DNA of 64,000 bases from NCBI GenBank assembly GCA_010093605.1, contig MU004184.1, positions 188,179 to 252,178 of the forward strand, read 5' to 3'. The translations under genes and the position numbers were made by a program. This document shows positions 21,451 through 57,509 of the stretch, one piece after another (within the stretch, counting starts at the first letter, position 1; each line of letters opens with the position of its first letter). Origin of the DNA: Lophium mytilinum (taxonomy: Eukaryota). The notes under the pieces are model-generated. The model had not been told where the DNA came from and ran no database searches. It saw nothing but the letters and a program-made list of their open reading frames with translations.

Positions 21451-22009
21451 TTCCCCTATTGCGACGTAAGCAAATGTAAAAGATGGAACAAGGATGGATG
21501 CTGCGTACTTTCTGGGTTCGTCAATCTTCACATCAATCTGAAAGGCTATGCTGCACGTGCCATCCTTCTGCTTCTCTAGTACCTCAACGTGGCTGGAGAC
21601 GACGGACGTAGAGGTGACGGAAACAGCCCTAGGCAGCTGGATCACAACGCTGGTGACGAGGATGGTGGTCTTGCCATAGGCACAGCGGGTAGGAGGGGGG
21701 TCCTAGGGGCTGTTAATCGTGATGATGCAACAAGTGAGGCGGAATAGGCTTACGTGGACTACGGAGTTCTTCGCGAACCAGAGTGGAGGGGGGAGCCATG
21801 GGCAAGGTCGTTGACGGGCCGAGACGCTCTGTGCGTCGTAGATTGGGTGCTCAATCCAGAACTCCATGATAGGCGGAGGCGATGTGGATGAGGAGGAGCG
21901 TGGAGGGGGAAGCTCAGCAAACGCGTCGTAGTAGTAAAAGGACGCAAAACTCGCTAACACTAGCGCGTTTTCACCACATTTACGTCACTGAACACGAAGT
22001 GGCAGTACA

Positions 22010-27248: not shown

Positions 27249-27373
27249 ACCTTTGAAGACCCAGACAGCAGGATGAAGATCAATCATGCGGATCAAGTAG
27301 CTCACTGTGGCGTAGGTGCCTTCGCCGAGCCTCTCGAGCTGCTTAAAGAGCTTGGATGCTTGCGGCTGTCCAT
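27249..27373 (-). pseudogene. PHO85: PHO85 CDK fragment: exon 1, intron, start of exon 2
   Basis: Reads MDSRKHPS(S, -1 frameshift)FKQLERLGEGTYAT, then intron 27305-27261 (GTGAG donor, acceptor mutated to TGG), then VFKG. Confidence 0.85.
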
Positions 27374-30133
27374 CGTGATCTGCTAGCCTCCGCCAAGAAT
27401 TCTGGCCTAGATGGACCAGTCGTTTCGCGAGTTCAGCGAGGGAGTGCCTGGGTGTGTCCAATGGAGCGTCCCTGGGACGGACGAGAGGCGTACTTGGGGT
27501 CCCGAAAAACAGCGCTGGCGGTGGTGAGATGGTTGGCGATGGCAAGTGATGGTGGGGGTGTGTTGGAGCGTGACGCCGGCGCCCTGCGGTATTTAGTCCT
27601 CTCTTTCGGGTCGTCCACTACGGCGATAGGGATATAGTGCCGCCGTGCAGGAGCCGTACCCAGCGGGATGCTTGAAAAGTGCTGGCTCCGCGGATGTGAT
27701 CCAGAAGCGATTCGCATGGTTCGCGAACCTTGGAGGATGGTTCTAAGCACGTCGTCACAGGCGTTTCTGACGGATAGGAACGAGGCATATGTCGACAATC
27801 CGCCCTTTAACATACTAGTGTCAATCGTGTGGCCCTTCTTTATGAGAAAAGAGTGGGAAGGCCAATAGCTGAGCGTAGCAACGGGTATCGCCCAGGGAGG
27901 GTCAACTTGTCGAAGTAGGCGTCACGCGTTTCGATTCTGCGCTGCGGGATGCATAGAAAGCCTGCTTGAAGAAGACAGAGGAGGACTTCGGCAATTTCGC
28001 GATCGGGGACCAAGGATCGTGGATCGGGCATGGAGGTTCACGCGACGCGCTTTCACGACCGCGAGAAGGTCGGGGAACCCTTCAAACCATTCACTGCAAG
28101 CACGCGTCTCCTCTCATTTTAGGGAGACGCATAGCTACTTGACGCTCTGTGAATGTGCCACCGCACCAAAGACTCTTCTTCAATCACCCGCGCAAGGCGA
28201 GCCGATCAATGGAAAGATTGTGTGCTCAAAGAGCGGGCCAGCAAAAATTACGCCAGTGAACCAGCCGAAGCCGACCCGATAGCGGACCCTCGCCACAGTG
28301 TGCAATGCAGGAGGTTCCACTAGGTGATCGGATCCATGAGCTCGATCACCCTGACAAGGTAGTGTGTGTGGAGGAGAAAGAGGTTCAGAGGGGAAGCGAG
28401 CTTATAAAGGTGGGCGAATGTCTGCCAAGACGCTAGCAGCTAGCGTATGGAATTTGGTGGATGGTGAACGCGGTTGCTGCCTGGCGTCTAGCGTCATGGG
28501 TGAGATGACTAAGGGAGAAAAATGCTCGGGATCGTGCTTGGGGACCACGTGTACAGCGTAACGAGTAGGAGAAAGCGTCACTGACGGGATGTTAGATGCT
28601 ATACCGTCATAGTAGAGGCCCTTGGAGAGTGGCATATCATTATTACAAGCAGCGGCAACTATCTTGAGCTATTGCTGAAGCCTGGCGTAATTCGTGGGTC
28701 ATGATGGCGCTTTGGAAAGCACAGCCAACGCTTGCTGAGCAACGAGTTCAAGCCTAGCACAGGGGCCCAAGCTCCGGGCTCTAGAGTAGACTAAGGCACG
28801 ATCTTATACATGACTGGCACATCCAAGCTTCATACGTTGTGGCACGGGAATCGGGACGTTTGACATTCAGTGACGGAGGGAATCCCGCAGGCAGCGAGGC
28901 CCAGCGCGGAAGTGTCAAGTTCGGGCCGGATAGTCACCAATCATCGCCACGTATACCTAGCCGAAGATGCCGTACAACCAAGAATCTTGTTAGAAAAGTT
29001 GCTATCCAACGTCACCATTCATTCTCGATTATTCATTCACTGCGGAAGACGAGGCCTACCCCTGCCATCCCACCTCGATCCTAAAAACTCCAGTTCGGGC
29101 GACCCCGCCACGTTTCAAAGAAAACCCCCCTCTTTCGACGGTTTGGGCTCATTCTTGGATTTTAGCTCTCAATACCGGGCCAGCTTCAAGACCTGCTATG
29201 AAATGGGGAGGCAATTGAGCTTTTGTTCTTTGCTCGCCATAACCTAGAAAGTGCTTCATAAAGGCCGCAGACATTAACGCGGAGCCTGAGCGAGTTTCCT
29301 AGGATGTCTTCCAGTGAGCATGAAAACATCCTCCGGCTAACCCGTTGGCTAGAGAACACCCCAAGCTCATCGAGATGGTCCTGTCGCTAGGTTGCATAGT
29401 TGACATGTTAAACTCGCCGGGAAGGTTCTGTAGGTGGTGTTAAGATGCTCCTTTGAAAGCTGTGACATGTATCGGCTAGACGTACAGAATGGAATCGAGG
29501 ATCATAGATTTCATTTTATTTATCAAGCACAAACTCATAGACGTTACTTAATCCCGATCTCCACTGGCCGACCTGTCCCGTGCTTTTAGTCAAATTGCTA
29601 TGCCCAGTCGCATTCATCGAGGACATCGCCTCAGATACTGTCAATGGCAGCGCCCAATGGCGAAGATACCCGGTGCTCTCAATCCGACCGCAATTGCAGG
29701 CAAGATCTACCCCGAGTCACCCATATGCCCCGCTAGGCCATCATCAATCTTACCAGCCCAAGGATCGAAAGTGTCCGAGGGTAGTGTCTCGTCAGCTGTC
29801 AGGTATCTTCTTCGAGCTCGGCCGCTTCCAACAATTCTGCATTGACAAAGCTCCAGGACCAAGTCTTCGTTAATCTCGTTGACTGGGAGGAGGATAACAT
29901 CTAGCGTGGGACTTTTGCGAACATCGTCAATAGGTCAAGCGAGAAAAGCCCGTAGGTTGTGCTGGACCACGGGCGCACTCACCAGTTCGCGCAGAAAGCC
30001 GAAAAATAAACTCGGTGGCTGTCTTTATTGGGTCCATTCCATCGCATCTCACTCCGGCAGAAGGCCATGACTTCATCTTTCTTTTAGTCACCACGTAGTT
30101 TGCTAGACCGCCTGCTCCGAGAGGATCACACCA

Positions 30134-30260
30134 CTGCCGCGTGAAATCTTTCAGGTGATGCCATTTGACATCGTAAGGGAGGTTGCCGACGTAGACGCGG
30201 CGATTCTGTTGTAAGGACTCCCGCGGAGACTGCATCATCTGCTTCTTGGCCTGCTTGTCA
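30134..30260 (-). pseudogene. GBP2: GBP2/HRB1-like fragment (start of RRM1)
   Basis: Reads QAKKQMMQSPRESLQQNRRVYVGNLPYDVKWHHLKDFTRQ. Confidence 0.9.
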
Positions 30261-30382
30261 AGAAATTTCGCTCCTCTTCACGTGGTTTGGAATCCGCCGC
30301 TGCCCGCACTTGCTCAGGCCCTCCAGCTAGATCGTGAGGGCATGTTCGAGCTGCTTCGTATGCGATTCGACAACGAGCTGCC

Positions 30383-30470
30383 GGTGATACTATAGCCCTT
30401 GGTGCCGAAGCGACCAGCCCGTCTAACAAAAGTGCAGATACGAGTCAGAGTCGTTCGGGAGATCGTAGTA
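30383..30470 (-). pseudogene. SUB2: SUB2/UAP56 helicase fragment (motif VI)
   Basis: Reads YDLPNDSDSYLH(frameshift)VRRAGRFGTKGYSIT. Confidence 0.85.
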
Positions 30471-30639
30471 CGCGGGGACCTTGGTGGCTCTGCGAAACGG
30501 CGGGCAACATGACTGGCACAGGCCCCCAAAACCTCCAGGAAACTTGTGCCCCGCCGCATGCCATCTTCCGATTTTGGAGCTGGAGCGTTTTGTCATACGC
30601 CATCATCGGCATTAGCGTTCAGGCCTTCTCGATGGGGTT

Positions 30640-30864
30640 GTCGCCGCCTAATTCTCTGATGATTTCGTCAGCGTGATCGTCAATGTTCCAGGGGTCTGCT
30701 TACTCAAGAGACATAGCGAAGTGCTTCTTGATGGACTTCAGAACCTCCTCATCTTCGGCGGTAGCGAAGAATCAGATACAAAGATCCTTGGTGCTGAAGC
30801 GATCCGCACGTCCAACACGGTGCAGATACGACTCAGAGTCATTCGGCAAATCCTGGCCGATAGC
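30640..30864 (-). pseudogene. SUB2: SUB2/UAP56 helicase C-terminal fragment
   Basis: Reads [52 protein letters not shown], then intron 30703-30656 (GTAAGC..GCTGAC..CAG). Confidence 0.85.
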
Positions 30865-31099
30865 ATAGCGAGCAGTGTGCTAGCGATTCTTTCTTGCCGC
30901 TGCGAGTGCGAGGAATGGTCGTATGCGCGACAGCGGAGAAGATGTCGAGCGGGCGCTGCTGAGTGGGAGTGAACACCAGCGGACAAGCTCCTCCGCCTGC
31001 CCTTTTTCGTGCACGCAGATCTGGCGTGAAAACGGAAAAGCTATACACGGCAGAGAGGTCCCAACCACGCCCCAGCGTTATTTCATCAGGGGCTGGACG

Positions 31100-31357
31100 T
31101 GCGGTAGGCGGGTCGAGTTGGCTACGGTCGCTTCTGGAGTCTGTATACTTCAGATCCTTGTCCACGTACTTGAAGACAAGCATCCACTTGTTCTCGGTGT
31201 GGGTGATATCGTGCAGTGAGACGATGTTCACGTGTTTGAGTTCCTTCATCAGCAAGGTCTCGCGGATGGCCGTGGACGGGGTGCCATCTTCAGAGTCCAA
31301 GCGATTCTCCTTGTGAGCGACGAACTCGCCGGTCTAGCGTTTGCGACCTTTGGCGAC
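31100..31357 (-). pseudogene. PHO85: PHO85 CDK fragment (exon 2, PSTAIRE region)
   Basis: CAG acceptor, then [70 protein letters not shown]. The stop is TAG where Q is expected. Confidence 0.92.
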
Positions 31358-31523
31358 CTGGGATTCAGGGAGTATCTGCCGCAGAGCTCATGACCATGTC
31401 ATGCTTTTCAGGCATTTTTTTTTCTTCAGACGGTTCAGAATCTGTTGCCGTCCGCCCTTGCTCAGACCCTCTGCATAGCACTGCTTGAAGTCCCTCAGCG
31501 TATTCTTTCCACAAATTCTGAGC

Positions 31524-32304
31524 CTAGTTTCGCCCGTCCAGCTTCCGCGTCTTACTCACCGGCTCTGCATCCTCGTCCGGCTCCAGATCCTCGCTCTTCA
31601 GCTGCTCCAAGCTAGCTCGCTTCTCCTTGGCGTGCTCGAGATAATCGAAGGCAACAGCACCATCTTGAGAAGAACCGACGCTGCCGGGTGGGTATAGCTT
31701 GTCCCAAGCCTCCTTCGGCAACTAGACCAGCGCTTCCATCTGGCTCTCCGGGAGCATTCCAACCACCCTAAACTCGAGGTCGTCCTTCATGTTCGTTGCT
31801 ATGGCGCGTCCGAGCTGTATCCCGTGCGACTCGGCAACGGCTTGCCAGTGTGCCTACCATGCTGTGGTGTCCATCTTCGCGAGTTCAGGCCCTGGAAATA
31901 GCCGCCCCTTGGAGTTCGTCACGGTTTTGGACGTCCCGTTCTCCCTCGCCTCTGGAGGCGTCCAGATTTCTTGTTCGAGTCCGCCATACGGATTGGGCTG
32001 TCCTGCCCTTCCGTAGGCTTTCCATTCGTGTGACTGGCCCGTCTCAAGACACGGGAACAAGGAGTCTAACATCTGTGCGAGTGTTTGTGGAGTCGGTAGG
32101 TGAGGTGTAGGCTTCCGCGACGGTTTCGCGCATGGCTCGGTCGGCTGGTTTCGGACGGTCGTGGGCTTGAAGGGGCCGAGATGATATCGTTGCTGCAAAT
32201 TGGAACGAGGCGAAGTCGAGGAGAAGGATCGGGGCGACGGGTACGCTGACTGGGTAAATTGCGTGCGGGACGGCGGCAGTGGCGAAGGCCGGGGTTGTGA
32301 CCAC
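31524..32304 (-). pseudogene. Pseudogene of an unknown protein
   Basis: ORFs 31854-32198 and 31524-31721 share a frame and are separated only by in-frame TAG stops at 31856-54 and 31724-22. Confidence 0.55.
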
Positions 32305-32836
32305 GCGTCCAGTGTGTGAGTGGTCAGGTGAAGAGGGACTTCACTTGCAAGGCGGGAAATGAGGCGAAGGTGTTGTTCGCTACGTTGGTCTTGGCCGCAA
32401 GGTAGAAAAAGGTGAATAGGGAAAGAGGGCTTAGCGTACTCGAAATTCCCTCGGATTTCTCATTTATTGCTCTAAGTTCTAGGACTACTAAAACAACGCT
32501 TCACTTTGCAATAGGAAGTGAAGAGGTAAGGAGTTGTAATGACTAAGCCGCTGATTTTGCTATTACGCTCTGGTGTGGGATCGTATTTGTTGCTGGGACA
32601 GACAAAAGAATGCTTGATATGTACTAGATTCCCCGCAGCGATGATGTCAAGACTTTCTATTATCTATCCAAGAGATGCGTGGGCGTTTCTGATGGGATCT
32701 ATAGAAACTGCCATATGCAACATCTAAAGCTCTTACTTATAATTACTTGTAAATGTTTGCTCTTAGCCTACCCAAAATATAATTCTAATATCATCAGCAT
32801 CTGCATGGACCTTTCTTAAGCCGGCCGAGGCTGCCC

Positions 32837-32896
32837 AGAACACATCGCGCTGAACATCATCCTGTTGCTCAGACGTCGCGTGGAAGATCCTTGGAC
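32837..32896 (-). pseudogene. SUB2: SUB2/UAP56 fragment (before motif III)
   Basis: Frameshifted VQxIFHATSEQQ(V)MMFSA, compared with family VQEIFRATPxxKQVMMFSAT. Confidence 0.6.
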
Positions 32897-33129
32897 TATC
32901 GTAACACACTCACGGCATACTTCCATCCCTGCAGACGGCTGGTGGCTTGAAGAGCCGCGACCCTTTCCGACCTCCTTCGCTTCCTCCATCACTGACTTCA
33001 TCGATACTTGTACAAATGAGTATGGAAGCGAGGGAATTTGAGGCGATCGAGCGAGTGGAATATACCTGTGCCAAATCCATTGTTGTATCTTCCAAGCTGC
33101 CAAGAGACATTAGCCTAGCCCTACGGAGA

Positions 33130-33610
33130 GGTCGTGCACGATGGCCATCGAGCGCAATATCTTGCCCAGGATGGATCCTAGATACTAATTCATGAACGTC
33201 ATCGCACGTGTCCTAGTCGGATGTAGGCATCGTCTGGGAGTTGACTGGGAGCTTCTGTGGGATCCGGAAGAACTTGGACACGGTCTCGTGGATTTTGGGC
33301 ATCTCCTGCTTCACCCACCAATCGGCCCTACCCGAGTGACGGAGGTTGCTTGCTTGGACCCATATACCGTGGAGAATGCGACCTTCTGGCTATGGAGCCT
33401 GGCTAACTTCGAGCTATCCTTGGTGAGATGGTCGCAGAATCATACTATCTGTGAACTCAGAGCAGTGAAGTCCAGCAGATAGTTGACGGATTGCATATAC
33501 CCGAGCGTCTGGCCTAGGCCTGTGGACAGCTCGTGGACAATGGCCATCGAGCTCAACCTCTGATCTAGGATGTTCTTTAGATACTGATTCATGAACGTCA
33601 TGGCGCCTAT
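33130..33610. repeat. ~75-bp direct repeat, 400 bp apart
   Basis: ATGGCCATCGAGC..AGGATG..TAGATACTRATTCATGAACGTCAT at 33140 and 33540. Confidence 0.8.
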
Positions 33611-36600
33611 CTTGACGGGCTGGATAGATGAACAGAAGCGGTCCCTTCATCCAGAACTCACTCATGTGGTCTATCAAGATCAAGCGGCTGGTGATAAACA
33701 GATACTCCGCAGACTGATTGACGGGGGTGGGTGGCATGTATCCTCTTTGATCGAGACATGAATCGAGACGGCGGACGGCTTCCTGTGGGGAATGCTGGAC
33801 AAGCTTGAGTTCTTCCTGGTGTTCCACTACACGAACGGCGCCCAGCTTGCTCTGCTTTCCTCTTGATACCGCCCTTCCACGTGAGAGTTGCTCGCCTTCT
33901 CATTCGGTAGACTCGTGAGGTTCCGAAGACAGGGTTCCATGCTTACAATAGACGCTTTTTCCATCTTAGATCTTCCTATCGGAGACTTGTTCTCTCGAGC
34001 TTGAACGTGTCGTTAGAGCGTGTCGTCGCCGGTCGGGATGACTTAGTGTTCGCGAGTGGGTTGAAGTATTTCTCGTACTCCATTCTGAGAGTAGCACGAG
34101 TTGTTTTCTTGGCGTAGGACTTCTGGTGTCTTGTCTGGGCGTGAACTCGGTCGTCGCCTTAGCCATACCAGGTTCTGCTGTGAAGGGCACTGCCGAATTC
34201 CTCGCCCAAAAGCTCCCGACACGACCATCGGAGTTGCCTTCGTAAGAACATTGGCCTTGAGCAGCATTCTCGGAGCGATCTGCATTGGAGCGTTCGGGGA
34301 GTGGAGTTGCGGACAGCTTGACAGATGGGTCCTTCGATTCAGAAAACGCGTCCCAAAGCGTGCTGTATGCTCGGGACCTTCCAGTCGACTTGTTGATCCC
34401 ACCAACGTGCTCCGGGTAAAATTCGGATCAGATAGGACGAAGACGCTATTCTGCAATATACTGAGCGAAAAGAGAGTGTGCTCATGGTCCGGAAAGTGGA
34501 GAGAGCGCAAATGATGTGCTGTGCCTTCGCCGCGACGATATCCGAGTACTGCCTCCTCCCGCATCTCAAGTGTTTGTGTTCGATGAGTGTTTCCTAGATG
34601 TGGTCCCTAGTTCCATCTTGAAAGCAGCGAGTACCCAGTTCTTTGCCCTGGACGCATATCAGCTTCGCACCCTCACATGCTGACCCCTCCTACTCATGGC
34701 GACCCGGTACCCTTGCAGGCCTTTAGTATACGGTATCGGCAGATCGATAACTACTAGAGGAGCTGGAGCAGCGGTAGCGGTGATCGTCATCGTCTCCGCT
34801 AGGGGAATGGCGAGTGTGACGTTGTCGCTTCACATGGTAAACCTCGTCTGAGCTGGGATCGCTGATATGGTCTTATAGAGAACTGGTAAAGGAGGAGGTC
34901 GTACTGGAAGGTCTCCGCGGTGAAGATGCTGGTCTGGAGCTGCAGGTCTGGAGATGCTTCCGCGAGCCCGCTGTAGAAAGACATGAGGGGTCAGCGCGGC
35001 AAGAAGGACTCACCCAACCAGGCGGAGGAGGAATGAAATACGATGTATGAAGTATGTACCGCGGTGAGGTTGTTCCAGAGCTGACAAAGACGGACCCGTC
35101 TATCACATCCCCTGTGGTTCGGCCAGAAATTGAGAACCCCAGAGGCCAGGATTGGACAAGCACTAGAGCGTGCGAGCGATCAGAGTCTCGGCTGACGCAG
35201 CGTAAAGTGAGAGAACAGTCGTTCCAAGAACCACAATGATAGGGAAGACGAAAGGGGAGCGAAGATACCCGCTTTCGAACTGCAGGGCGACGGCGCTTCG
35301 CGATTGTCCGTGATGCCCTATCGTAACCTTCATTACTCCTGCCCTCGACGTGTACCTTTCGTCGCTCATAACTTCGTACGGCTCCTCCTTTTCCCATGTC
35401 TAAGCTCATGCCCCGATCAATTGCCACTCCTGTTCAACTAGTCCGGAGCCAAGATGTTGCCATGTACGGACCCTGCTCGATGTCATGCTGTTTCTTCGAG
35501 TCGCGATCCTTGATCACCACGCCTCGAGACATCAGACAGTCCAGGTTTGGACTGTGCTTCGTGGTCTCGGTAATCATATAGAGTTCCTGAACGAGACGCG
35601 GAGGGCGACGAGAGACTGGACAAGAGTCTAGTGGCGATTTCGAGGAGATATGAAACAGCATTCTGGCCGTGGACACGCTGATCTGATCGCCGTAGGAGCG
35701 TACTAGATGGCCAGAGCCGCAAAGTATGCCGAAAAGTCCAATCACAGACCGAATTTGCGCGATATGGCATCGATGGAAGGCTAGGCTCGGAGAAGCGAGC
35801 TTTTCTCTCTGATCTCCTACCATAATGTCTTCCATCTCTGCAGACCCGGCCGGTGCTGGAAGTGCTGTTGGCGTGGGACGTGGAGTTTGGTATGGGTTTG
35901 TGTGTTGTTCTTTGGTCTCAGCATTTTGAAACTTAGTCAACGATATATCGAGGGAACATGCAAAGCATGGAAGGCCTACGCATCCAGCAAGATCGAATGG
36001 GCGAGCCCATGAGGTCCTAGACACTTGTCTAGCTAGACGGCAAGTGGAAAAGATGCTATTAGGACGGCCTCACGACCAGTTCTAGCTGTCCGCGCTGGCT
36101 GTTGGAGACCTTGAGCGAGCGAAGAGATTGTGAGCGGGAAAGTCGTAGAAGCATAGGGTTGAAGCATCCCTATTGCAGCCCGAGCCAGCCCTTGTAAATA
36201 AAACCACGGCGGATCAGGGAACAAACATACCGATTCGTCAGTTAGTCTGTAGTATCGCGCCAGGAAGTGGAGTGAACGCCGCGTGCGCAACTGTGACGCG
36301 AGATCGGTAGAACCTCGTGGTGAAGTCTGAGATGCTCATTTCTGGAGTTGAGGACAGATGTCATTGACTTCGGAAATTGTGCGAAAGAAAGAGATGCCCA
36401 TCCCATACGCGCAACTTAGCAACTAAGAGCGGCTCTTTCATTCGTTCAAACTGCGCCAGTCTTGGTTCTACCCCTTTGGAAGCAAGCATGGCGTTTCGAC
36501 GCGTCTCTATCGAAGTGGAAGGCCAGCGACACGCGTCGTTACAGCATGCCTATAGGGCAAGGCGGGGAAAACTCTGCCCGGCAGCATCAACAACAACAAC

Positions 36601-38649
36601 AATACGTCACGTCACCACACAAGATAGCTTTGCTTGAAGCGAAGGAGCATTTCTTCTTCGAAGCCCCAGACAAGCTGAGGAGTTCAATGAAAAAAAAGTT
36701 TCGCGTCGGCCCGAGGCAGTGCAATACGAGCGACACTGTGTCCCTGGACATAAGCAAGCCCAGCGGCCCAGGAACGGTTTCCAAAGAGTGGATTAATCAG
36801 GGAAGGCCCCGTAGGACCGTTTCAGAGATTAAACTGAAAAGAACCTGTGAAGATGTTAGTGATGGAAGCAAAAGGACGGCAAGAAAAGAGGAGAGAAGGA
36901 GGAGACTTACAGATACTACTCTTGATCTAAGCCAAAAGGCACTGTGATGGTTGTCAGTGATGATCGAGTGAAGGGTGGATGCGAGTGAGTGATGGTGAAG
37001 GAAGGGAAGTGGGAAAGGATGGGGAGTTGGAGAGGATGGGGGTGGGGTTGGAACTTACAAGAGAGCTGAGGTTTGGAGACTGCTCGAGGCTGAGCTTTTG
37101 TAGTCGACAGACGGCGCTAGTCTGGCGTGATGACTCATCAGCGCTAGACCGTTTAACCGAGCAGGATAACGGGGCCAGAGACCTGGGCGAGTGCTGCCTA
37201 GGCTCCAGTAGCTCGAGAGGGAGGTGGAGCGACTCGGCTACCGGCCAGACGCTTTACACGTGACGAAGGACTTTCCTGTCTATGCCGCCAACCCTGCGCG
37301 CGCTAAGTTCTACATTACGAGGGCAATTCCAATTATGGCCAAGATTCAAGGAACGGGTACTATGCTGGGTGAGCACACGTTATCTGAGGTGACGATGCTT
37401 ATCTGCATTCTCCGAATCTTTCTAACGCCCTTTTCTGAAAAGTGTTACTGTACCTATCTACTTAGGGAACATCAGGCTCGGAGCTGTATGTGAAGCTCGT
37501 CTCCACATTAAGACAAGGACGGCTGATCTGTCAAATCTTAGGAAGCATCTGACGGTAGGTGCAGCCCAATACGTACCCCTCGGGTCCATCAGTTGTTTGC
37601 TACAGGATGCAAGCTTTGCGTTACTTCCTTGCTAGTCAACTCTACGTAGCTTCTAGAGCGTCTTAGTACGGAGAGCTGGTAGATTTACGCCATGGAGAGG
37701 CGCCCCGGCTGTTCAGTACTGTGGACCCGTCTCCCCAGAAAAGAATGGCCACACGGTATCACAATGTTGGCTTATTGCTCCCAAGCAAAGACATTCACCG
37801 GCGGATCAACGTTGCAGTCGCCATGCCTGAGCGCCTGATTGACTCCTTCCAGCAGACGTACAACCTCCAAGTTGGTTCACACGCATCATCTGGAGGGAGC
37901 GGCCGCTCACTTACAATCAGGGTCGATCCACTCCTGGCGATGAGATTAAGTGGTACCCCTTCAGCTACTGCCATCCAAGTGAAGTGGCACAACAAACTGC
38001 GCCCTACCGCGATCTCGCTTAAGACTTCGCTCACCTCAGCCAACCTTCCAACTCGTCACCTTGCCTACTACACCACTACCAAAGCTTGCCCTCAGAGCAC
38101 GAGTCGCAAGGCCTTGTTACGGACCTCATCTCCCGTCGAAGCCCTTGCTTGGCGACATGCCGTGTCGCCGCGCGTCTCCAAGTGAAAGAGTGAATTCTAG
38201 TAAGCAGAACCCCGGACGGTACTACTTCACCCGCCACCTACGAAGTGAAGAGGTCTAACTACTTCTAGATACCGCAGTATTCTTGCTGTAGACCGCCCAC
38301 AACGGACCTCATCGCCTACGCCTTGCTCTACGCGTCGTAAGCATTCCGCGAGCAGACCGCCACCCGAAGCCCGACAAAACGCACGCGATGGCATCGCGTC
38401 CTGGCTCTGCGGGCGGTGCCGTCATTCCGCTACTTTCCGCGCCTTTTTCTCGGGCCAGCTACTGGGCCCTCACTCAATCTTCGCTGGGTCCACATATCTT
38501 CCTCCATACGCTTGATGGCTCTCCGATCGTAAATGGCAGCTGGACACTAGAATCTCTGAAAGTAGCTGTAGCTCAGCGGTGAAGTCGCCCGCCGTTGGGA
38601 GTGCGAACTGGCAAAGACAACAAGGCTGGCAAAGACGAAAAGTTTGGCA

Positions 38650-39030
38650 AGACGACGAGGACCCTTCAACCGGGTGGTGAGTTGTTCTCGATAACATTTC
38701 TCACTACCGTCGCCAACAAAATCTTAAGGGGTTATCCGCGAGACGTGTCTGGGTCGATACTGGGGGGTGCTGGGTGGCTCCGACAGGGGAAGCGCATTCA
38801 GCCCCCCAAAAGACTTAAAGCACCATCGTGAAGTTTGTGGTCGACCCTTGTCACATCCCCGAGCGAGAACAGTGTGTTTCGGCCACCCGGCGGAGTAAGT
38901 ACCACTTCATCACATTCCCTTACCGTGGCTAACAGAATATTAAAAGATTGATCGCGAAACATGCCTTGTCCGATGCTGGGGGTGCTGGGTGGCTTCCGAC
39001 ACAGGAGGCGCATCCAGCCCTCACAAGGCC
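38650..39030 (+). repeat. Tandem duplication of an exon-intron-exon module of unknown origin
   Basis: Two GTRAGT..CYAAC..AAG intron-like segments, each followed by CGATRCTGGGGGTGCTGGGTGGCT..GCGCATYCAGCCC. Confidence 0.7.
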
Positions 39031-39047
39031 CCCGTACCGCAAATATG

Positions 39048-39491
39048 CAGTTCAACGGATACGACTGGCAAGGCCGCCAGCTCGAGGTTCGCGAGGATCG
39101 TTTTGCCCAAGGTCCCCCCGGCAGAGCTCGGGAGAGCTATAGGCTGTTCACCCTAGGGTTGGACAACCCACAAGGATAGAGTGCCACCAAAGGTTTGGGT
39201 CGACTCTGACCCAAGCCCAGAGGCGCTTGAATGCGTCTGGCGTGCGGCGCATGGACTCAACCCTAAGCGCTGTCCAAGACCTGCGTAACGAGACTGTTGA
39301 CTGTAGACCAAAACACTTCCCAACGACTTCACCGACTTCGCAACCTTGGGCGGCGAGGTAAGTGAAGTCATCCACGTCCGGAATGTAAGTGGCGTGACTC
39401 CTCCCTTCTATACAAGAGACCGACCGCACTCAGCTCCCGTGGTTAACAACCAACGAGAACTTGGTAGAGCTGTTCAGGACTAGGGGCAAGG
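39048..39491 (+). pseudogene. GBP2: GBP2/HRB1-like fragments (end of RRM2; linker and start of RRM3)
   Basis: QFNGYDWQGRQLEVREDRFA at 39048-39107. Then PNDFTDFATLGGEVSEVIHVRN, intron 39385-39433, LPWLTTNENLVELFRTRGK. Confidence 0.9.
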
Positions 39492-39643
39492 CCCCCCTTC
39501 TCAACGAACACCCGCTACCCTGCCAGTGGCTCTGTTGGTCTCGACAATCCGAATGTGTCCCACAAGGTCGAAACACCCGTCCAACAGGTCATGATTGTTC
39601 CGGAAACTATGCTTGGGGGTCAGCCGCGCCGAGATCCAGTGCG

Positions 39644-39768
39644 AAGCAGGGATGATGTTCAGCGCAACTCTCTCTGAGGACATCCGTCCCGTCTGCAGGA
39701 TGTTCATGCAGAATCCGCTCGAGATCTACATCGACAACCAGGAGAAACTCACTCTCCATGGTCTCCAG
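39644..39768 (+). pseudogene. SUB2: SUB2/UAP56 fragment (motif III and downstream) embedded in the GBP2 mosaic
   Basis: Reads KQ(V)[39 protein letters not shown]. It is directly preceded by GBP2-like VSRAEIQCE (39619-39645). Confidence 0.92.
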
Positions 39769-39814
39769 CCGATGCCCGTTCCCGTGGTACTAATGTAGTC
39801 CAACTCGAGAACCT

Positions 39815-40163
39815 AGAGGGCCCAGCTACAGCACGAAGCCCACGATCGCCCCTATAGTACTGTTGCGGTTCAGCTGGAGAAGCCAGAGGATAGAGTTACT
39901 GCCCGAAGTGAACGGTCGCTCCCGTGGTACTAGTGTGGTCCAGTCCGAGAAAGTGGAAGATGCAGTCACAGCTATCTGTACGTCGTGTCCTGTCAGCCTT
40001 CGAGATACCATCTAACCATTCCACAGCCAAATGCACTGGATATCAGTACGGTAGTCGCCCGCTTGGCATCTCTCACGTCCGCTACACCAACATCTCCAGC
40101 GGAGGCGAGGCTATGGAGGGAACTGAGGCTACTGGCGGTCTTACTCAGGATCAGATCATGTAG
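39815..40163 (+). pseudogene. GBP2: GBP2/HRB1-like RRM3 C-terminal fragments up to the native stop
   Basis: Duplicate piece RAQLQHEAHDRPYSTVAVQLEKPEDRVTA. Then EVNGRSRGTSVVQSEKVEDAVTAI, intron 39978-40026, SKCTGYQYGSRPLGISHVRYTN..GGLTQDQIM*. Confidence 0.9.
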
Positions 40164-43100
40164 AGCGCTCATTGGCTTAATGTTATTTTGAGATTTGGCG
40201 AGGTCAGCGAAGTGGACCTGTTCTTGACGCTAAGCGTAATAGTAAAAGTTTTATTTTCTGACGTCGTCTTCTAAATGAATGTGTCGCTACTTGTCCGTGA
40301 AGACTCGCCCTTTACGCATACCTATATGACTAACCAGCTCCGTCCAGCTAGTTGTAAGATTGCCTGCTCAGCCACATTCTCTATATTTGCGATACCAGAC
40401 TTCACTTTTAGAACATTGGCGGAGTAAGCTGGACCTCATCTGGACACCCTTTGACCCCTCAACTTTCGAGCTCTGAGAGCGTTGTGGGTGAGGAGCTGCC
40501 TCCACCGTTAGGCGCGACTACATTAGCACTGCAACACTAGTATATCCGAAGCGGCTGGAGGGACGGGACCACTACAAGATGGGTACGGTAATACTTCATG
40601 TGAACGGCATTATGACGTACCTTACTGCCTCTTCTTCGCCGAGGCAGCGGTGGTCAAGTGTAATCTTTTTGCATCGAGGCTGAAATCAACATATCCCAGT
40701 TTCAAATCCTAGCTATGCGTGCTATGTAGAGATATGAGGTATAACCCTTCGCAGCTCCCGACGGGCGGTATGCATCCTGCTATCCCTTGGGCCTCTAGCT
40801 CGCTGCTCCATTTTATCATCGAATGCCCCCAGCCGTTGCCTCCAATAATGCGTCATCACGTCCGCCATCCTCCAGCTGTTATTTGTCTTCCGTTAGACGA
40901 GCCTCCACCGCCACTACTCCGTGAGGCAATTGAATCCGACTTGGCACTCGAGTGTCGTGGGCTTCGAGGTGGAGTCGGTCGAGAGGGTAGGCGTGGTCGG
41001 CGACTCTTTAGTGGGGGGAAAATCTATCTATCATTAGCGGCAAGGCCCAAGGCAAGAAGCACCGGCGCTAAGAGTCCTGCTTACCCTCGTCGCAACAGTA
41101 GTGAGGAAAGCCGGTATCTCACCCTCCGCTCCAGACGCTCCACAATTGCTATTAGATCTAACTCGCCAGTCTTCGGACGTGAAAATCTGTAACCGTGGTT
41201 GATGACCGCCGCGTCTGTATGATCCGCTCCCGACGACGCCTTTTCGGCTTTCTTTCGGTCCTTTTCGACGGCATTCGACTCGTAAAACACTGTTCATACT
41301 CACTCTGGTTTCTGAACCAAGGACCAGGAGACATGGGGTCGCCCTCCTCTTCACCGTTGTTTTCAAGTTTGGTAGCCATCTTCGAGCTCTGGTGGCTCCT
41401 CACATCGTCGAAAGAATGGCGTCTCGAATGAGAGTCAAAGGGGCCGCTGAAACTGAGCAACGTGGTCAGGTGAGGTTTCTTCGGACTGTCCATGATGCTA
41501 GTATCGGTCGAGATGCGGTGGAGGTCGGAGCCGAGACCAATGGTATGCTCGCTATAGCGTTTGTAAGTACACAGCTCCGTGCAGCCCCAAGCCTTTCTGA
41601 AGTGCTCCTCTGCGACATGTGACGTCTTGAGAAGCGCTTCTTCCAGATCAAGAATGGTGCGAGATCAGGAGATTGCTATCTCGACAGGTTGAACGAGGCA
41701 GGACGAGACGACGATATATGTGAGGAGCTCGGCTGTCGTCGTGGTCTTTCTCTAGCGCTAGTGCGTACACTCGGAGCTCTTGTAGGTAAATTCGAGGAGG
41801 AGGCTCTGTAGGCGCACTGTGGTGTCGATGGTGAGCTCTACAGTGGTGGGTTGGAAATCATGGCGTACAATATGGGAACACGGGCCACGAGTAGGAACTT
41901 TTCGAACTAGGAGGCGAAGGTGTAGTTGAAGGTGGTGACGCGGGGCGAAAAGTCAAGGACGAGGACGAGAACTCTGAGGTCGGGGTCTAGGACCACGGGT
42001 CTGAGACTACCTATGGGGTTGGTCATTGACGTGAGTTGAGAGAGAGGGATGACAAGGGCAAGATGACTTACGGGCCTCTTTCCCACTGCTGGAAGCTCCA
42101 TACGGTATCTTGTGCATGTCTTCTGCTTGACTGACCGGCCAATGTGATCCTGTTCGCAGATTGGAAGCCTGGATTCCTCGCTGCCGCGCAGGATAGCGCT
42201 GGCCCGTTCTGGCTTGGAAGGACGGTGCAGTGGTACATTCAAGCGGCTGTCCTTGAAGCAATCGCGCCATTGCCAACGGCTCATGGTGGGGATGTGCTGC
42301 TGGCTCTCATGGCGGATACGAAGGATGCGGGTTGATCCATAGCTTGACACCAGTTCGCCTTCGGGGTTACTGTCTCTTCTGATACGGTACGTTGTCCACG
42401 ATCCATGTCGTCGTTGATGGGTGCGTGGCTGCTAGCTAACAGACCTTCGTGAAGTAGAAGATGCTCGGCTAAGCTGGAAGTGTCCTTCGGTGTAGGGCTT
42501 TCGTCTACAAGGATAGATTGTTGCTTTCTCTGCTCTTCACGGCCCGATCTTCGATTACTGCGGTATATATCACAAGTATATATTGACTTCGACTGGAACA
42601 CCTTGGGCAATAACAGGTCATCCTTCGCTCAGCGCACTCCGACGTGTATGGTTGGGTAGAACAGCCAGACAGTTCGACTCGTCCTTCAGAGCCCTGGGAT
42701 CACTGCGGAAGCAGTAGCGTCACATGTCGAGGGCCTGGCGAGGTTGGCGGCCGTCATAGTGGGCTTCACGCTCAACAGTCAAGAGGAGGAGAAAGTCCGA
42801 AGCCTTTGGATCTTTTCAAAACGTGGCGTTATACGCTCAGAGGTTTCGGTGGGGTAGACTTTCTGTGGGCAAGTTCGCCATTGTCCTGCGCGAGTTGCCT
42901 TTTTGGTTGGGTTTAGGAGGGTTCTGGCGGACGAGAAGCTCGTCAACACTAATTCGGAGGTTGAGCTGTGCGTGTCGACTGAGAAGGGAAAATTGAGAAG
43001 CTCCAAGGACTACGCTTCTAATCGAACAGTTGGATTGTGGTGGGCTTTTCGATGGCGCTCGACTTTCAAACATCGAGCTCAGTTCCGAATCGAATGTCGG

Positions 43101-45553: not shown

Positions 45554-48500
45554 AAGGGTGGACCTATTTTTTTTGCCCATGGTACAGTCTTTTTGCACTC
45601 GCGTGGCAGCAGTTAAGATTTGATTTTGCTACAACATACAGCTATGAAACGTATACCATATGTTCCTGGCTTATTTCGCACGTCACTGTCGCTCGAATGC
45701 TAAAACCCTCATTTGTCCGCTTTCCTTGGGCCATCAGAACGAACGCCCAAAAACATCATCCCAACAACGAGCGCCCCATTTGAGCGCATAAGATCTCACA
45801 TGTTGATCCTAGGTCCATGCTAACTTCAATTTGGCCTTCTGAGGCGTCACTTCGGGCGATACCCTCCTTTAGCAAAGATAGCGGCACTGTACATCACCTT
45901 GACTTGCGCGAGTCACTCTACCTCTCAACCTTCCAGCTTTCCCTTTAAGAAACCCTGTTGAAGTCCAGTCTTGTCATAAATCGCTAATATGAGATAATTT
46001 GTAGCTTCACGCGTTCTACCGCACGCACCGCCGTCCAGAACCTCTCGTCCCCCTCCCCATGTTTGTCTCGAGAACATCATCCTTAACCCGACCCTCACAC
46101 TTCTCTTCTTCCAGTCATTCGGTAGCGCCCATAGTGTCGCCTCCAACTCCAACTCTACCATTACCGCTCCAAAAAGAGAGTAGACCGCACGTCCCGCCGT
46201 GAGACTACCAACTCGCCCGCTCTCAAAGACGACTGCCACGTCTGCCAACAGGACCCCTGACTCCTACACTCATCCGCCCATTTTATCGTCTGGCAGACCG
46301 CTATAACACCATCCTCGTCGCCCCTCAGAAACCTCTATTGCGTCAAGTTCCGACTCTGACTTTCGGAACTCGCCAACGGTACCCCCGGCACAATCTCCTT
46401 GTCGCCTCCCACGCTGCCTTCGTCGCCTCGCACTAGTTCCTCTTCCGTCAAGTTTCGAGTTCGAGTCCCGGAGCGACCACCGACGCCCTGGGTACGTTCC
46501 CCTGACCTGTCGCTCAGCCTGTGTATGAGGCCACCGCGTCTTCCCCTTTGGCCGGAATCCGACTTGGAGCCCCTTGATGGTCCACCAGTCATTATACAAG
46601 GCACCCTAGGAGTAGCTTCAGCCAAATACATCGTGCGCCTACAAAGCCACCTACGTCCGACCCTTCTGGTAACTTCCAGCACCGGACCTTCATGTCGACC
46701 AACGCGTTTGCCTACGAGGCAGTCTCTCCCCATCAGAATCGTGTCGAGTGTATCCTCCGACACCTCCTAGAGCCCCGAAGCGCCCTATCTCACGATCACA
46801 TATACCGTTCTTCAGGCGTTGTCGATACGGCTTTTCAGAGACTGTAGGTGAGGCTGACAAGCTTGGACGAGCGTAGACTCGAATACGTGGTGTAACATAA
46901 AACGTATGTGAGGGTCAATCAGCGAAGACCTCTGGGTGCCCATCTGCTTCCCGACCCCAAGACAACTACCCCAAAGCAAGCGTTGAGGCCGTTTTGGACG
47001 CCAAGCGAGTTGAAGAGGAGCCGTATCTCCGCAGGGGCTACTTTCAGCCGCCGTCGATTACAAGGTGGCAGAAAGGAAAAGCAGGGGTCCCTTTTGCGTC
47101 AGGAGCTGGTATTCGTACGAAGCATCTGGTCGGCGACTCGTAGTTCCGTCGCGACGATCCTCATGAGTTCTCGAAATTCGAGATCCTCTTTGCAGACGAG
47201 CGTGCAGTACCTCTGGATCATGATGAGAGCAACTACAAGGCAGTCAAAGAGGAACTGCTCGATAAGATCCCCACGGAACTAGGCACTCCCATCGTGCACC
47301 TGAGGTTCGGAACACTTGGTTTCCTCGGCCGAGTCGCCATTGATGTTGTCATTGAAGTCAAAGCTACACGGGAGGGGTTCGTTGTGGGCGCCTTGCGCAG
47401 AGCTCGGAGTAGGTTCTTCTTCTAACGCCTCTTCCGTAAGAGGTGGGTATGATCGGGTGGTACTTGGCAGTGCTATTGGAAGTACTATAGGCCATTGAAG
47501 GCCTTCGTGCGGCGGTTGAGAAGCCAATTTGTCTCTCAATAGTCGACTTGCCGTGTCAACAACACCCTTGTCTCAAAAATGTATGAAAACTCATCTCCGT
47601 TCACATTGATTTTGTAGTGCGAGTTTCTTCTGCTGTAATGATCATGCAAGATATCTCTAGCCCATAGCCGGGATCTCGCGTATGTGAAGTCGTTGGGCGT
47701 TTGGGACAGCTTATAAATCCATGGATATGAATGTTGCGCGAGGTGCGAAGAGGGACGTTTGTACTCCTTGCGAGTATGCTGGCGTCTTGGAGTTTCATGG
47801 GACGACTGGATTCTTAGGTGGCAATGATAGAGGTTTTATCAGCACAGCATAATGATAGCCCGAAGGTCACTTCTCTGGGCTTATGGATGAGAGGTAGGTC
47901 CCCTGTGAATTGCGAATGTGAAGGTAAGCCACTAGGCTTGCTAAGACATTATATCGAGCTACATCGACAAAGCTCCCAAAAGAAAACTCTCACGTCGACT
48001 GGCTTTCAATGAAAGTTGCTTCAATTCTGCTTGCGGGGACTTGTTACTAATCTAAGACACCTCCTGCAGTGTGATGGATTTGAAATTGACATCTAAAGCC
48101 CGTAAACCTCTGGCCAAGCTCTGATGACCGCGTAACTTCTTCTTCAACTTGCAATGTAAGGCTCGGGACTGAATTAGGCTCTTGTGACTGCACATCTCTT
48201 GGACGGCGCTCTTTCCGTGTGCTCTTGAACTGTAGCTATGCACTTCAGACAGCATCCGCGGATAGATGGAATGGAACTCTGACGCCTGGTCCTCCGCAAC
48301 AATCGCCATAAGTCATCTCCACTTTCTTCCTACTTCCCCTCATCGCTACGTTCCCCAGCCCCCAGTCAAAATCGAATAACTCTCCGCCCCAAAGCAGCCT
48401 TGCCATGCTGCCTTTTCTCGCTACAGTTTCCAATGCGAAGACGGCGACAAACGGGCAGACTCAGGCAGATTGAAGGCATCTTTTACTGAGACGATGAGTA

Positions 48501-53671: not shown

Positions 53672-53833
53672 CAGCACGTCAACATCGTCTCCATGTACGA
53701 CGTCACCCACACCAAAAATAGGCTGATGGTCGTCTTCGAGTACATGGACAAGGATCTGAAGAAGTATATGGACTCCAGAGGCGACCGTTGCCAACTGGAC
53801 CCAGCCACGATCAAGGCCTTCATGTTACAGCTC
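53672..53833 (+). pseudogene. PHO85: PHO85 CDK fragment (subdomains IV-VIa)
   Basis: Reads [54 protein letters not shown]. Confidence 0.9.
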
Positions 53834-54253: not shown

Positions 54254-54346
54254 GGCTTCGACGCAGGAGTCGCATCCAACCCCTCCAACGACTTCACGGG
54301 ATTCGCAACCTATGGCGGCGAGGAGAGCGAGTTTTCTACGTTGCGG
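54254..54346 (+). pseudogene. GBP2: GBP2/HRB1-like RRM2-RRM3 linker fragment
   Basis: Reads GFDAGVASNPSNDFTGFATYGGEESE, paralogous to 39319-39384. Confidence 0.75.
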
Positions 54347-54499: not shown

Positions 54500-56040
54500 A
54501 CAAAGTAAGCCACCTCATAATCGTCCTCAACTCCTTCACCTTCGACACCGCCATCCAAACCCCGCCGACTGCCTCATAGTCGAGCGCTCAAAGGCGGTGC
54601 CAAGATTGAAACCTGTCCCTGATATGGCAAGAGAGTTTTCTGCTCACGTATCATCTCTTGACCTATCTGTGGATGTGACGCGCGGGCAAGTTCCTCGACT
54701 CCAAATACCACCATGGAGAGTCGAGCGACAGCTGGCAGCTGGGTTAAGACCGTTCATGGACGCCCGGCTCAGACATCTTCTTCGGCAACACCGTCTTTCT
54801 TACACAGATACAGAAGCATAGCTAACCACGTAAGCAGATCCCGAGTCCAAAGCTCTACCGGTATCCCAGAAGAGTACACCCCCACAACCTCCTCCATCCT
54901 TCCAAGACCTCCCATCCCAAGCACACCGAAACATGGCACCGCCATCCGAACCACGCCGACTTCCTCATAGCTGGGCTCTGGAAAGCGGCGCCAAGATTGA
55001 TACCCATTCTGCGATATGGTGCAGACGACTCGACTCACCTATCCGGGCGAACTGACGCCGTAGGCAAGTTCCTCAACTCCTAATGCTACTATGGAGCTTC
55101 GGGAGGGCGACTCGAGGTCAAAGTATCCACCCAAGAATCGTCTATGGACGCCCAGCTCAGACATCTTTTATCACCCCACCACGTCTTGCCTGCGTTACGG
55201 TAGCATGGCTAACAAGTAAGCAGACTTGGGGACAAATCTATAGCCCAGCTCGGACTTGAGTACTATACCAGTCACACAACAAAGTACGTCCACCCATTCT
55301 CCTCCTCCATCCCTCGACCGCGCCCACCCAACCACCCAATACCCCGGCACCGCCGTCTCTCCGTACCAGCTTTCTCATAGCCGAGCGCCAGACGGCGGCG
55401 CCAAGATCGAAACCCATTCCGCGATATGGCAGAGATGGTCACTCTAAAGTATCCGGGCGAGCTGAAGCACGGGCACGTTCCCCGACTCCTAATGCCACTA
55501 TGGAGAATCGGGAGGACGATGGCAAAAACAACACGGCCAACGGGGTATCGTCCATGGACGCCCGGCTCAGACATCTTTTCTCGCACAGCACATTCGTTGT
55601 GCATGTTGGAGTAGCATAGCTAACTTATAAGCAGGTTCAGACACCAACCGGTGGTCTAGCTCAGTTTCCCAACAAAGGTACGTCCACCTGGTCTTTCCCC
55701 CAGCCCTCCAACCCCATCCCACCGACATCCCCCCCAATACCCCGGCACCGCCGTCCCTCCGTGCCGGCTCCCCCATAGCCGCACACCCAACCGCGGTGCC
55801 CATATCAAAACACACGACATGCGTCGTAGTTCCGGGCCGCCGCCCTCAGGAGCAGGGCCGGTTACGTGGAGCGGGAGGCTGACGCAGGAATGCCTCAGGC
55901 CTTGGACACACGCAAAAGTCGTTGACGCCAGAGCATGTGCCCCCTCCCTGTGTTCCAACCCGTGGGATTGGGGAGGACCGATGGCCGCTAAGGTCCATGG
56001 ACGCCTGGCTCAGACATCAATTAGGATTGCGACATCTGCC
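54500..56040. repeat. Diverged ~390-410-bp tandem repeat (about 4 units)
   Basis: GCCAAGAT-type anchors at 54599, 54990, 55400 and 55798. ATGGACGCCNRGCTCAGACATC occurs four times. Three units carry GCTAAC..AAGCAG (branch/acceptor-like). Confidence 0.9.

Positions 56041-57311: not shown

Positions 57312-57509
<198 letters not shown>

Follow-up and report, generated by a model that had tools for sequence, protein, structure and literature searches.

A GBP2-like gene copy interrupted by a piece of SUB2 in Lophium mytilinum: a probable mosaic pseudogene joined at short shared strings

Microhomology-mediated template switching, known as fork stalling and template switching or microhomology-mediated break-induced replication (FoSTeS/MMBIR), leaves short shared strings at the junctions, and yeast dna2 mutants reportedly acquire complex templated insertions at chromosome breaks. 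Lophium mytilinum is a saprobic Dothideomycete. Here, we describe a 64-kb stretch of its genome (contig MU004184.1; hereafter the window), in which a copy of a GBP2-like gene at 38.7-40.16 kb is interrupted by a piece of SUB2. In the parts of the papers that we consulted, chimeric non-processed pseudogenes from segmental duplication are described for human pericentromeric duplicons (PMC13122177), transduplication for Pyrenophora tritici-repentis (PMC3538342), Pack-TIRs for animals (PMC8277862), and non-syntenic copies of core genes for Zymoseptoria tritici (Mycosphaerella graminicola), where they sit on dispensable chromosomes (PMC3111534). Among the papers listed for L. mytilinum, judged by titles and the starts of abstracts, none deals with this tract.

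Judged by its sequence, the locus is probably a non-functional, non-processed (that is, DNA-copied) mosaic pseudogene, built by microhomology-guided joining.

A SUB2 piece inside a GBP2-like gene copy

The reference for the GBP2-like parent was P0123 of L. mytilinum, a protein of 490 amino acids (aa) with three RNA recognition motifs (RRMs). Its RRM3 matches the RRM3 structures of yeast HRB1 and GBP2 (PDB, E = 7e-20 and 2.9e-17, respectively), and the GBP2/HRB1-like label is fair. In tblastn comparisons with P0123, the GBP2-like pieces on the plus strand of the window at 38.7-40.16 kb follow the parental order, and a SUB2 piece (tblastn, PDB) lies among them, both as described in the original prediction. 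The GBP2-derived tract was predicted to start at 39048, but it starts further left, at about 38.7 kb. The N-terminal 268 aa of the parent are absent from this copy, and every reading of the locus in the GBP2 frame contains stops. The pieces are as follows:

38705-38804 and 38921-39020, plus strand: two direct repeats of 100 nucleotides (nt), 77% alike (self-blastn)
39015-39122, plus strand: end of GBP2-like RRM2, parent aa 269-304 (tblastn, 72% of 36 aa, E = 8e-12)
39123-39318, plus strand: stretch replacing the parental glycine/arginine-rich linker, unalignable to the parent at an identity of at least 80%
39319-39384, plus strand: GBP2-like linker end and RRM3 start, parent aa 373-394 (tblastn, 83% of 23 aa, reaching aa 395 at 39387)
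39385-39433, plus strand: putative retained intron of 49 nt, GTAAGT..CAG, between VRN and LPW (suggested by the RNA contig end at 39384, the next exon piece being too diverged)
39434-39490, plus strand: GBP2-like RRM3 piece, parent aa 395-413 (tblastn, 74% of 19 aa)
39491-39618, plus strand: 128-nt filler dividing parental GK from VS, its right part overlapping a possible SUB2-like remnant at 39585-39626
39619-39647, plus strand: GBP2-like VSRAEIQ(Y>C)E with GAAGC at its end, parent aa 414-422 (translation; P0123 has VSRAEIQYEANG)
39643-39769, plus strand: SUB2-derived insert of 127 nt, parent aa 228-270 (PDB SUB2 E = 6.1e-16, tblastn, mRNA contig, blastn)
39767-39977, plus strand: three head-to-tail 70-nt copies of the RRM3 core, (Y)EANGRSRG..VTA, starting at 39777, 39847 and 39917 (repeat search, 100/64/73%, and tblastn)
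39978-40026, plus strand: retained GBP2 intron of 49 nt, GTACGT..CAG (parental RNA contig jumps from 39977 to 40027; ends GT..AG)
40027-40163, plus strand: GBP2-like C-terminus and stop, parent aa 446-490 (tblastn, 87% of 45 aa to P0123 and 91% to P0122 of Mytilinidion)
38961-39086, 39221-39357, 39817-39977 and 40027-40163, plus strand: the four exons of the annotated model P0121, a 186-aa 'hypothetical protein' (the joined exons translate exactly to it)

Contigs of three read runs were aligned to 29500-41000 of the window at 80% likeness, and 24 of the 292 aligned pieces were listed. X1 and X2 are DNA runs of one sample, possibly the source of the assembly itself, and X3 is a presumed RNA run with the same species label. 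At 80-92% identity, contigs of the parents, both DNA and RNA, align to the window. A 2613-nt X3 contig, which is the true GBP2-like mRNA, aligned to a stretch running to 30134 on the minus strand, and to 39051-39126, 39318-39384, 39904-39977 and 40027-40178 on the plus strand. Both the DNA and the RNA contigs of the parent jump from 39126 to 39318, across the replaced linker. The RNA alignment terminates precisely at the exon edge 39384 and skips from 39977 to 40027, and a 48-nt intron-like stretch is kept in a SUB2 piece at 30.7 kb (see below). Thus, introns are retained, and the pieces were copied from DNA and not from mRNA. A retrocopy was rejected, as the introns are kept and no A-run follows the stop at 40163. 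The locus combines functional parents, retained introns, and disabling lesions, as a non-processed pseudogene does.

The copy also carries traces of re-copying. Each of the 100-nt repeats terminates in sequence that weakly resembles the GBP2 linker end, GGFDAGGASNPPND (38773-38814, 57% of 14 aa; 38998-39021, 75% of 8 aa; tblastn), and these repeats appear to mark an extra partial re-copy on the left side of the GBP2-derived tract. The third of the 70-nt units is the best preserved and continues into the exon end. The 70-nt period is not divisible by 3 and shifts the frame. The C-terminal GBP2-like open reading frame (ORF) had no match in the PDB search, and the three frames of 38401-40502 gave no Pfam family at E <= 1, because the fragments are too short.

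The C-terminal piece reads TNIS, like the Mytilinidion protein, where the resident Lophium gene has TNVS; VSRAEIQ and PNDFTDF are common to the copy and the resident gene. Together, these residues suggest that the copy branched after the two genera split, but before some of the changes in the resident gene.

The SUB2 insert was compared with P0001, the Sub2 protein of L. mytilinum (434 aa). It spans motif III (SAT) through the end of the first RecA-like domain, and 37 of the 39 residues encoded at 39652-39768 are identical to those of P0001. The parental SUB2 mRNA contig (1359 nt, run X3) aligned to 39652-39769 with 9 differences. From metagenomes, we also collected 80 related SUB2 loci, which comprise 624,915 bases (up to 10 kb per side, 27 loci of at least 8 kb). 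The blastn match to these loci covers 39643-39769 with one gap, so that the SUB2 stretch is 39643-39769 with a 1-nt deletion (39651). The region of aa 225-275 is uninterrupted in 77 of the 80 loci, the other three being cut by contig ends, and the SUB2 introns of the related loci lie at about aa 76, 213, 333 and 419. Hence, neither end of the SUB2 piece coincides with an exon boundary.

Both edges of the insert coincide with short strings. The parental SUB2 sequence before ATGATG is available as a loose contig end, ..GAAGCAGGTA (longer stretch, CAGCAGAAGCAGGTA), and the window reads GAAGCAGG-G at the left junction, 39643-39651 (longer stretch, ..CAGTGCGAAGCAGG-G). The GBP2 tandem units 2 and 3 have CGAAGCC (39834-39840) and CGAAGTG (39904-39910) at the same site. 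Both sources therefore have GAAGC, which stands at 39643-39647 and recurs in unit 2 at 39835. This agrees with the earlier proposal of a joint at a short shared string, to which our analysis adds a second string at the right junction: AGC at 39767-39769 is shared (SUB2 side, ..CTCCAGCAG), and AGCC occurs at 39767 and 39837. The insert is flanked by ..TGC GAAGC on the left and AGCC GATGCC CGT on the right. When it is removed, the GBP2 text reads on unbroken (..GAAGC|C GAT GCC CGT, compared with GAAGCC CAC GAT CGC in unit 2). The insertion cost no base of the GBP2 target and doubled none. The donor is intact, as the full-length P0001 and the 1359-nt mRNA contig cover the copied stretch. Short strings at both junctions and a kept donor are the features of a microhomology-mediated templated insertion. 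Moreover, the 70-nt re-copy begins a few bases upstream of the junction, which fits serial template switching. A 25-mer across the junction had no match among the metagenome contigs.

These observations would be explained if the 3' two-thirds of the GBP2/HRB1-like gene, with their introns, had been copied as genomic DNA into a gene-poor tract and partly re-copied there, giving the 100-nt repeats at 38.7 and 38.9 kb and the threefold 70-nt RRM3 core. A 127-nt copy of the middle of SUB2 would then have been added via the short matching strings at both ends. This could have happened when a DNA end under repair or replication switched templates, or when a free fragment was joined by microhomology-mediated end joining. 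In such a switch, the strand would exit GBP2 at GAAGC, copy SUB2 from GAAGCAGG.. to ..CTCCAGC, and return to GBP2 at AGCC. Events of the same type may have assembled the 64-kb tract from pieces of PHO85, SUB2, GBP2 and other genes, with drift afterwards.

More than one switch is conceivable. A possible older SUB2 remnant at 39585-39626, running from Q229 to R243, shares its left edge with the main piece. Compared with a stand-in for the parental SUB2 edge, it reached a score that 8 of 4000 random stretches of the window also reached. Protein-level shuffling (161/1000), the 30-nt loose end alone (2544/3000) and the start of the piece alone (412/3000) were not significant. The QVM-like remnant proposed originally is therefore a plausible but weak candidate. 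If it is real, the order SUB2 remnant, GBP2 aa 414-422, SUB2 aa 228-270, GBP2 aa 423 onward would require more than one switch between the two sources. Additional weak SUB2-like matches within 37.5-40.4 kb (sum of the top five reached in 2/150 shuffles, top score in 5/150) are suggestive only, and the best of them overlaps a real GBP2 piece in another frame.

The insertion was originally described as in frame. This holds for the left junction, where the ORF 39595-39798 (67 codons) reads the GBP2 codons VSRAEIQ.E and the SUB2 piece in one frame; it does not hold for the right one, beyond which the GBP2 core follows a different frame and a stop at 39796-39798 closes the ORF, 9 codons beyond the SUB2 piece. 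Such an open frame, together with the excess of silent differences in the SUB2 stretch (see below) and the gene model annotated at the locus, could indicate that the SUB2 stretch is a used coding exon or a small ORF (49-67 codons) under selection, that is, a young chimeric gene. We consider this very unlikely, as the stretch is only part of a RecA-like domain, the neighbouring exons are decayed, the frame ends in frame-shifted GBP2 sequence, and the annotated model leaves the SUB2 stretch out. With the early end of the frame and the omission of the SUB2 piece from the model, the locus does not look like a functional chimeric gene.

In P0121, the SUB2 piece lies inside intron 2 (39358-39816) and is thus spliced out of the model. 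Exon 2 is out of the GBP2 frame, and a cryptic GTAAGT within GBP2 codons serves as a splice site. P0121 is most likely a prediction artefact from pseudogene debris, and the lesson for annotation is that a deposited 'hypothetical protein' can be the reading of such debris by a gene-prediction program. The X3 depth in the bins of 39100-40251 (391.8, 963.6 and 942.1) equals that of the parental contigs alone, and no RNA contig of the mosaic itself was seen in the X3 alignment; both are uninformative on expression.

The second interleaving and the surrounding tract

A second interleaving of SUB2 and GBP2 pieces, which the original prediction had placed at 30.1-30.9 kb, is real; it lies on the minus strand (tblastn, 30.1-31.0 kb) and has a PHO85 piece directly upstream of the SUB2 3' part. 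In minus-strand order, it consists of a piece of a PHO85-type cyclin-dependent kinase (CDK) at 31357-31097, SUB2 at 30999-30703 and 30467-30383, and GBP2 at 30253-30134:

31097-31357, minus strand: PHO85-type CDK piece, aa 134-221 of the Mytilinidion protein (PDB PHO85 E = 9.6e-22; tblastn, 75% of 88 aa; Pfam Pkinase E = 1.9e-7)
30619-30999, minus strand: SUB2 3' part from aa 309 through the stop (tblastn for aa 309-419 at 30999-30703, 46% of 111 aa, E = 2e-19; PDB SUB2 E = 1.1e-9)
30383-30467, minus strand: second short SUB2 C-terminal piece, aa 369-396 (tblastn)
30134-30253, minus strand: GBP2-like RRM1 start, parent aa 86-125 (tblastn, 85% of 40 aa, E = 4e-16; Pfam RRM_1 fragment E = 0.0049)

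The SUB2 3' part carries an internal stop and a 12-aa gap, and its last intron is retained (30703-30656): it has a 48-nt GT..AG stretch where the loose end of the mRNA continues with EEFPEAGVDP, matching the SUB2 intron at about aa 419 of related fungi. The SUB2 mRNA contig differs from 30707-30846 at 21 places. The short piece at 30383-30467 is a degenerate re-copy of 30786-30852 (88% in the repeat search; blastn, 82% of 68 nt). A PDB search with the three minus-strand frames of 29.5-41.5 kb gave nothing beyond PHO85/CDK and SUB2.

The two interleavings were originally taken to suggest two independent joining events. They do use non-overlapping parts of the genes. As the tract is full of further fragments of these genes, a later reshuffling of copies already present there would explain this as well as independent joining. 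The pieces at 39-40 kb differ from the parents at 9/118 and 14/152 positions (the latter for the GBP2-like mRNA at 40027-40178), and those at 30-31 kb at 21/140, 27/187 and 39/246. This gap hints at different ages of the two loci, although it is not significant by a rough estimate.

Additional pieces of the same genes are dispersed in the window:

27579-27303, minus strand: PHO85 aa 39-134 (tblastn)
53672-53833, plus strand: PHO85 aa 174-227 (tblastn)
57482-57417, minus strand: PHO85 aa 230-251, HRDLKPQN loop (22 of 22 residues identical to the Mytilinidion protein)
60950-60822, minus strand: GBP2 aa 145-189 (tblastn)
54254-54346, plus strand: GBP2 aa 363-393 (tblastn)
2412-2323, minus strand: GBP2 aa 157-186 (tblastn)

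The PHO85 pieces at 27303-27579 and 31097-31357, both on the minus strand, share a breakpoint at aa 134 and stand in permuted order, and the approximately 3.5 kb between them contains SUB2 and GBP2 pieces. The permutation looks like that of a tandem or circular intermediate that was trimmed later. In contrast to the complete identity at 57417-57482, the other PHO85 pieces are only 65-87% identical to the protein.

Among 432 stop-to-stop ORFs of at least 65 aa in the window, eight contained a Pfam family at E <= 0.01: an intact kinase, three kinase fragments, an RRM fragment, a 6-phosphogluconolactonase fragment, and two weak, sub-threshold matches. The sole long intact ORF (591 aa, 6187-7959, minus strand) encodes a full protein kinase domain (E = 1.3e-30) and contains a 21-nt tandem repeat at 6481-6557. 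The ORF at 47144-47422 (plus strand) is a fragment of a 6-phosphogluconolactonase/glucosamine-6-phosphate isomerase (PF01182 positions 55-91, E = 7.5e-9). Another gene fragment may lie at 1178-1405 (plus strand), which weakly matches the Spo11/topoisomerase VI-A Toprim domain (E = 0.0053; 17 bits, below the cut-off of 24).

Self-comparison of the window yielded 22 pairs, nearly all of them old local tandem duplications with a spacing of 200-700 nt and 66-82% identity; the remaining ones are three exon-sized matches between dispersed pieces. Tandem duplications occur all along the window, for example, at 11091-11983, 22004-22748 and 54546-55814. A 100-nt direct repeat (33113-33212 and 33512-33611, 76%) lies in a stretch that matches a 2578-nt expressed contig at less than 90%; Pfam, PDB and the protein Atlas (scores <0.9) gave no name for it. 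The stretch 36412-37179, with a DNA depth of about 9-16 times single-copy and many joints jumping 62-450 nt, is a repeated element or minisatellite-like stretch with many genomic copies. The G+C content is 0.50-0.56 throughout the window. At 47 places where the parental RNA contigs have G/C, the window has A/T, and the opposite exchange also occurs 47 times. Repeat-induced point mutation (RIP) was rejected on these balanced changes and on the G+C content of about 0.52.

The capture of intron-bearing pieces of several unlinked genes in one unit is a hallmark of transposable elements (TEs) of the Pack-MULE-like, hAT-transduplication or Helitron kind, and transduplication has been reported, in the part of the source consulted, for another Dothideomycete (PMC3538342). 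In addition, another contig of the same genome joins sequence like that at 38480-38547 to sequence like that at 40073-40157, bypassing 1.5 kb; the 16 joining letters of that contig have a single counterpart in the window, at 40073, from which they differ by 2 mismatches. Part of the composite is therefore present a second time in the genome, in a different arrangement. Against such an element having captured and delivered the GBP2 and SUB2 fragments, no transposase, reverse-transcriptase or integrase family was found by Pfam among the 432 ORFs, and no pair of inverted repeats of at least 25 nt was found in 28-42 kb, where shorter or decayed termini could escape. The window's own contigs have single-copy depth, the edges of the insert are microhomologies, and the GBP2 target is not duplicated. 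Delivery by a transposable element thus appears quite unlikely.

Donors, age, and assembly

The close linkage of the parents, which would have allowed a local rearrangement to explain the interleaving, was rejected. In Mytilinidion resinicola, the parents lie on contigs of 1,960,146 (SUB2), 423,135 (GBP2-like) and 3,067,355 bases (PHO85). In L. mytilinum, the GBP2-like parent lies on a contig of 2,039,319 bases, and Sub2 and P0121 each on one of 2,482,353. The equal lengths of the latter two suggest that the true SUB2 probably shares the scaffold with the tract. Consistent with separate parents, no GBP2-like or PHO85-like match at E <= 1e-8 was found near SUB2 in any of the 80 related loci.

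The SUB2 piece differs from its resident parent at 9 nt (mRNA contig) and 2 aa (P0001). Thus, about 7 of the differences would be silent, a number deduced from these two counts rather than read base by base. The stretch has 22.3 silent and 94.7 changing sites, and in a drifted copy of the resident gene, 7 silent differences would be expected to come with about 15 changing ones (P about 5e-5 if rates are equal). For the excess, a simple binomial test gives 0.004-0.09, depending on the assumed silent share. In the older pieces, the parental letters give back the residues of P0001, and the visible differences are nearly neutral (4 silent versus 8 changing, and 6 versus 11). The silent excess would reflect either a diverged but functional donor, or protein-level constraint, or a mistake in the inferred differences. 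If it holds, it would suggest lost paralogues or foreign DNA as the donors, which would bear on the gain and loss of duplicates in fungi.

One reading that takes the excess at face value is that the donors were diverged yet functional, being lost paralogues or DNA of a related fungus, and were stitched together at integration, so that the younger pieces are little decayed. Apart from the SUB2 piece itself, the C-terminal GBP2 piece, with 14 differences in 152 nt and 5 aa differences and with TNIS as in Mytilinidion, fits this, as do the perfectly kept PHO85 piece at 57482-57417, the presence of pieces in both orientations, and their scrambled order. The nine SUB2 differences were not seen singly, the older pieces look neutral, and the same three genes recur, unlike in a random sample of a foreign genome. 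Moreover, the closest sequence to the SUB2 piece is the resident SUB2 mRNA (92%), compared with 80% for the best of the 80 metagenome loci, and protein searches with the window pieces turned up no second SUB2 or GBP2 protein of L. mytilinum among their matches. We regard such donors as unlikely. Their broader form, with a similarly low probability, is that the tract is a long-lived capture site in which pieces of a few unlinked genes were pasted, re-copied and shuffled by template switching or end joining under the guidance of microhomology, and whose best-kept pieces (SUB2 39643-39769, the GBP2 C-terminus and PHO85 57482-57417) came from still-selected, diverged donors, either lost paralogues or a related fungus. 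If this were true, the site would be nature's equivalent of a scrambled transgene array and would preserve the fossil traces of a chromoanasynthesis-like event in a fungal genome.

We also considered that the mosaic is an assembly artefact that fuses reads of the true SUB2 and GBP2 genes. Short-read graphs do break at shared words, and contigs end at 39681 and 39080. However, the pieces are 8-15% different from the true genes and are, therefore, separate sequences. The window's own contigs align with 0 differences at single-copy depths (140-169 in X1), and one of them (X1, 39135-39681, depth 150, 0 differences) reaches 30 nt into the SUB2 piece from the GBP2-like sequence on its left. A fusion of reads would also hardly yield the filler and the decayed tandem units, for which the parents have no counterpart. 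An artefact is therefore most improbable.

Several points weigh against a microhomology-joined, DNA-copied pseudogene that decayed in place. The overlap of 30 nt at the left junction is 1 below the alignment tool's 31-nt rule for a crossing, no contig crosses the right junction among the 24 of 292 pieces listed, and X1 and X2, if they are the source of the assembly, are not independent support. The GBP2 side of the microhomology was deduced from the tandem units of the copy itself. Neutral decay after copying does not predict the apparent silent excess, and the SUB2 piece is kept at 92% of nt and 95% of aa, whereas the adjoining tandem units are only 64-73% alike. Additionally, a non-autonomous, non-coding transposon could still have served as the carrier. 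We nevertheless favour the mosaic pseudogene.

Comparison with known systems

The tract resembles human pericentromeric duplicons, as portrayed in the consulted part of the source (PMC13122177), in that unlinked genes have contributed intron-bearing pieces that stand side by side at the DNA level, are disabled, may be annotated or transcribed in some cases, and are embedded in duplication-rich sequence. Unlike in the duplicons, the pieces are 60-300 nt long and lie in a compact fungal genome, and the self-comparison revealed no large duplicated blocks. With transduplication and Pack-TIR elements, to the extent that the consulted parts of PMC3538342 and PMC8277862 describe them, the locus shares the presence of several host-gene fragments with introns in one unit; unlike them, it had no terminal repeats, transposase relatives or multi-copy depth in the searches made. 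In the consulted part of PMC3111534, the Zymoseptoria copies are mostly whole genes on separate small chromosomes, whereas the tract consists of sub-genic pieces on a 2.48-Mb contig that probably also carries the true SUB2.

The tract is free of recognizable TEs and of RIP and is made of pieces of unlinked housekeeping genes; tracts of this kind have seldom been described for compact fungal genomes. If our interpretation is correct, the locus shows cleanly, in nature and in a filamentous fungus, how a copy-and-paste insertion with short shared strings at both junctions can stand beside tandem re-copying. The cases of FoSTeS/MMBIR and of dna2 insertions come from laboratory mutants, human disease alleles and tumours, whereas this locus would be an old, fixed and decayed case, and its mechanism is deduced from the junctions alone. 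Like those cases, it combines a distant copy of about 0.1 kb, short strings at both ends, no loss of the target, and tandem re-copying.

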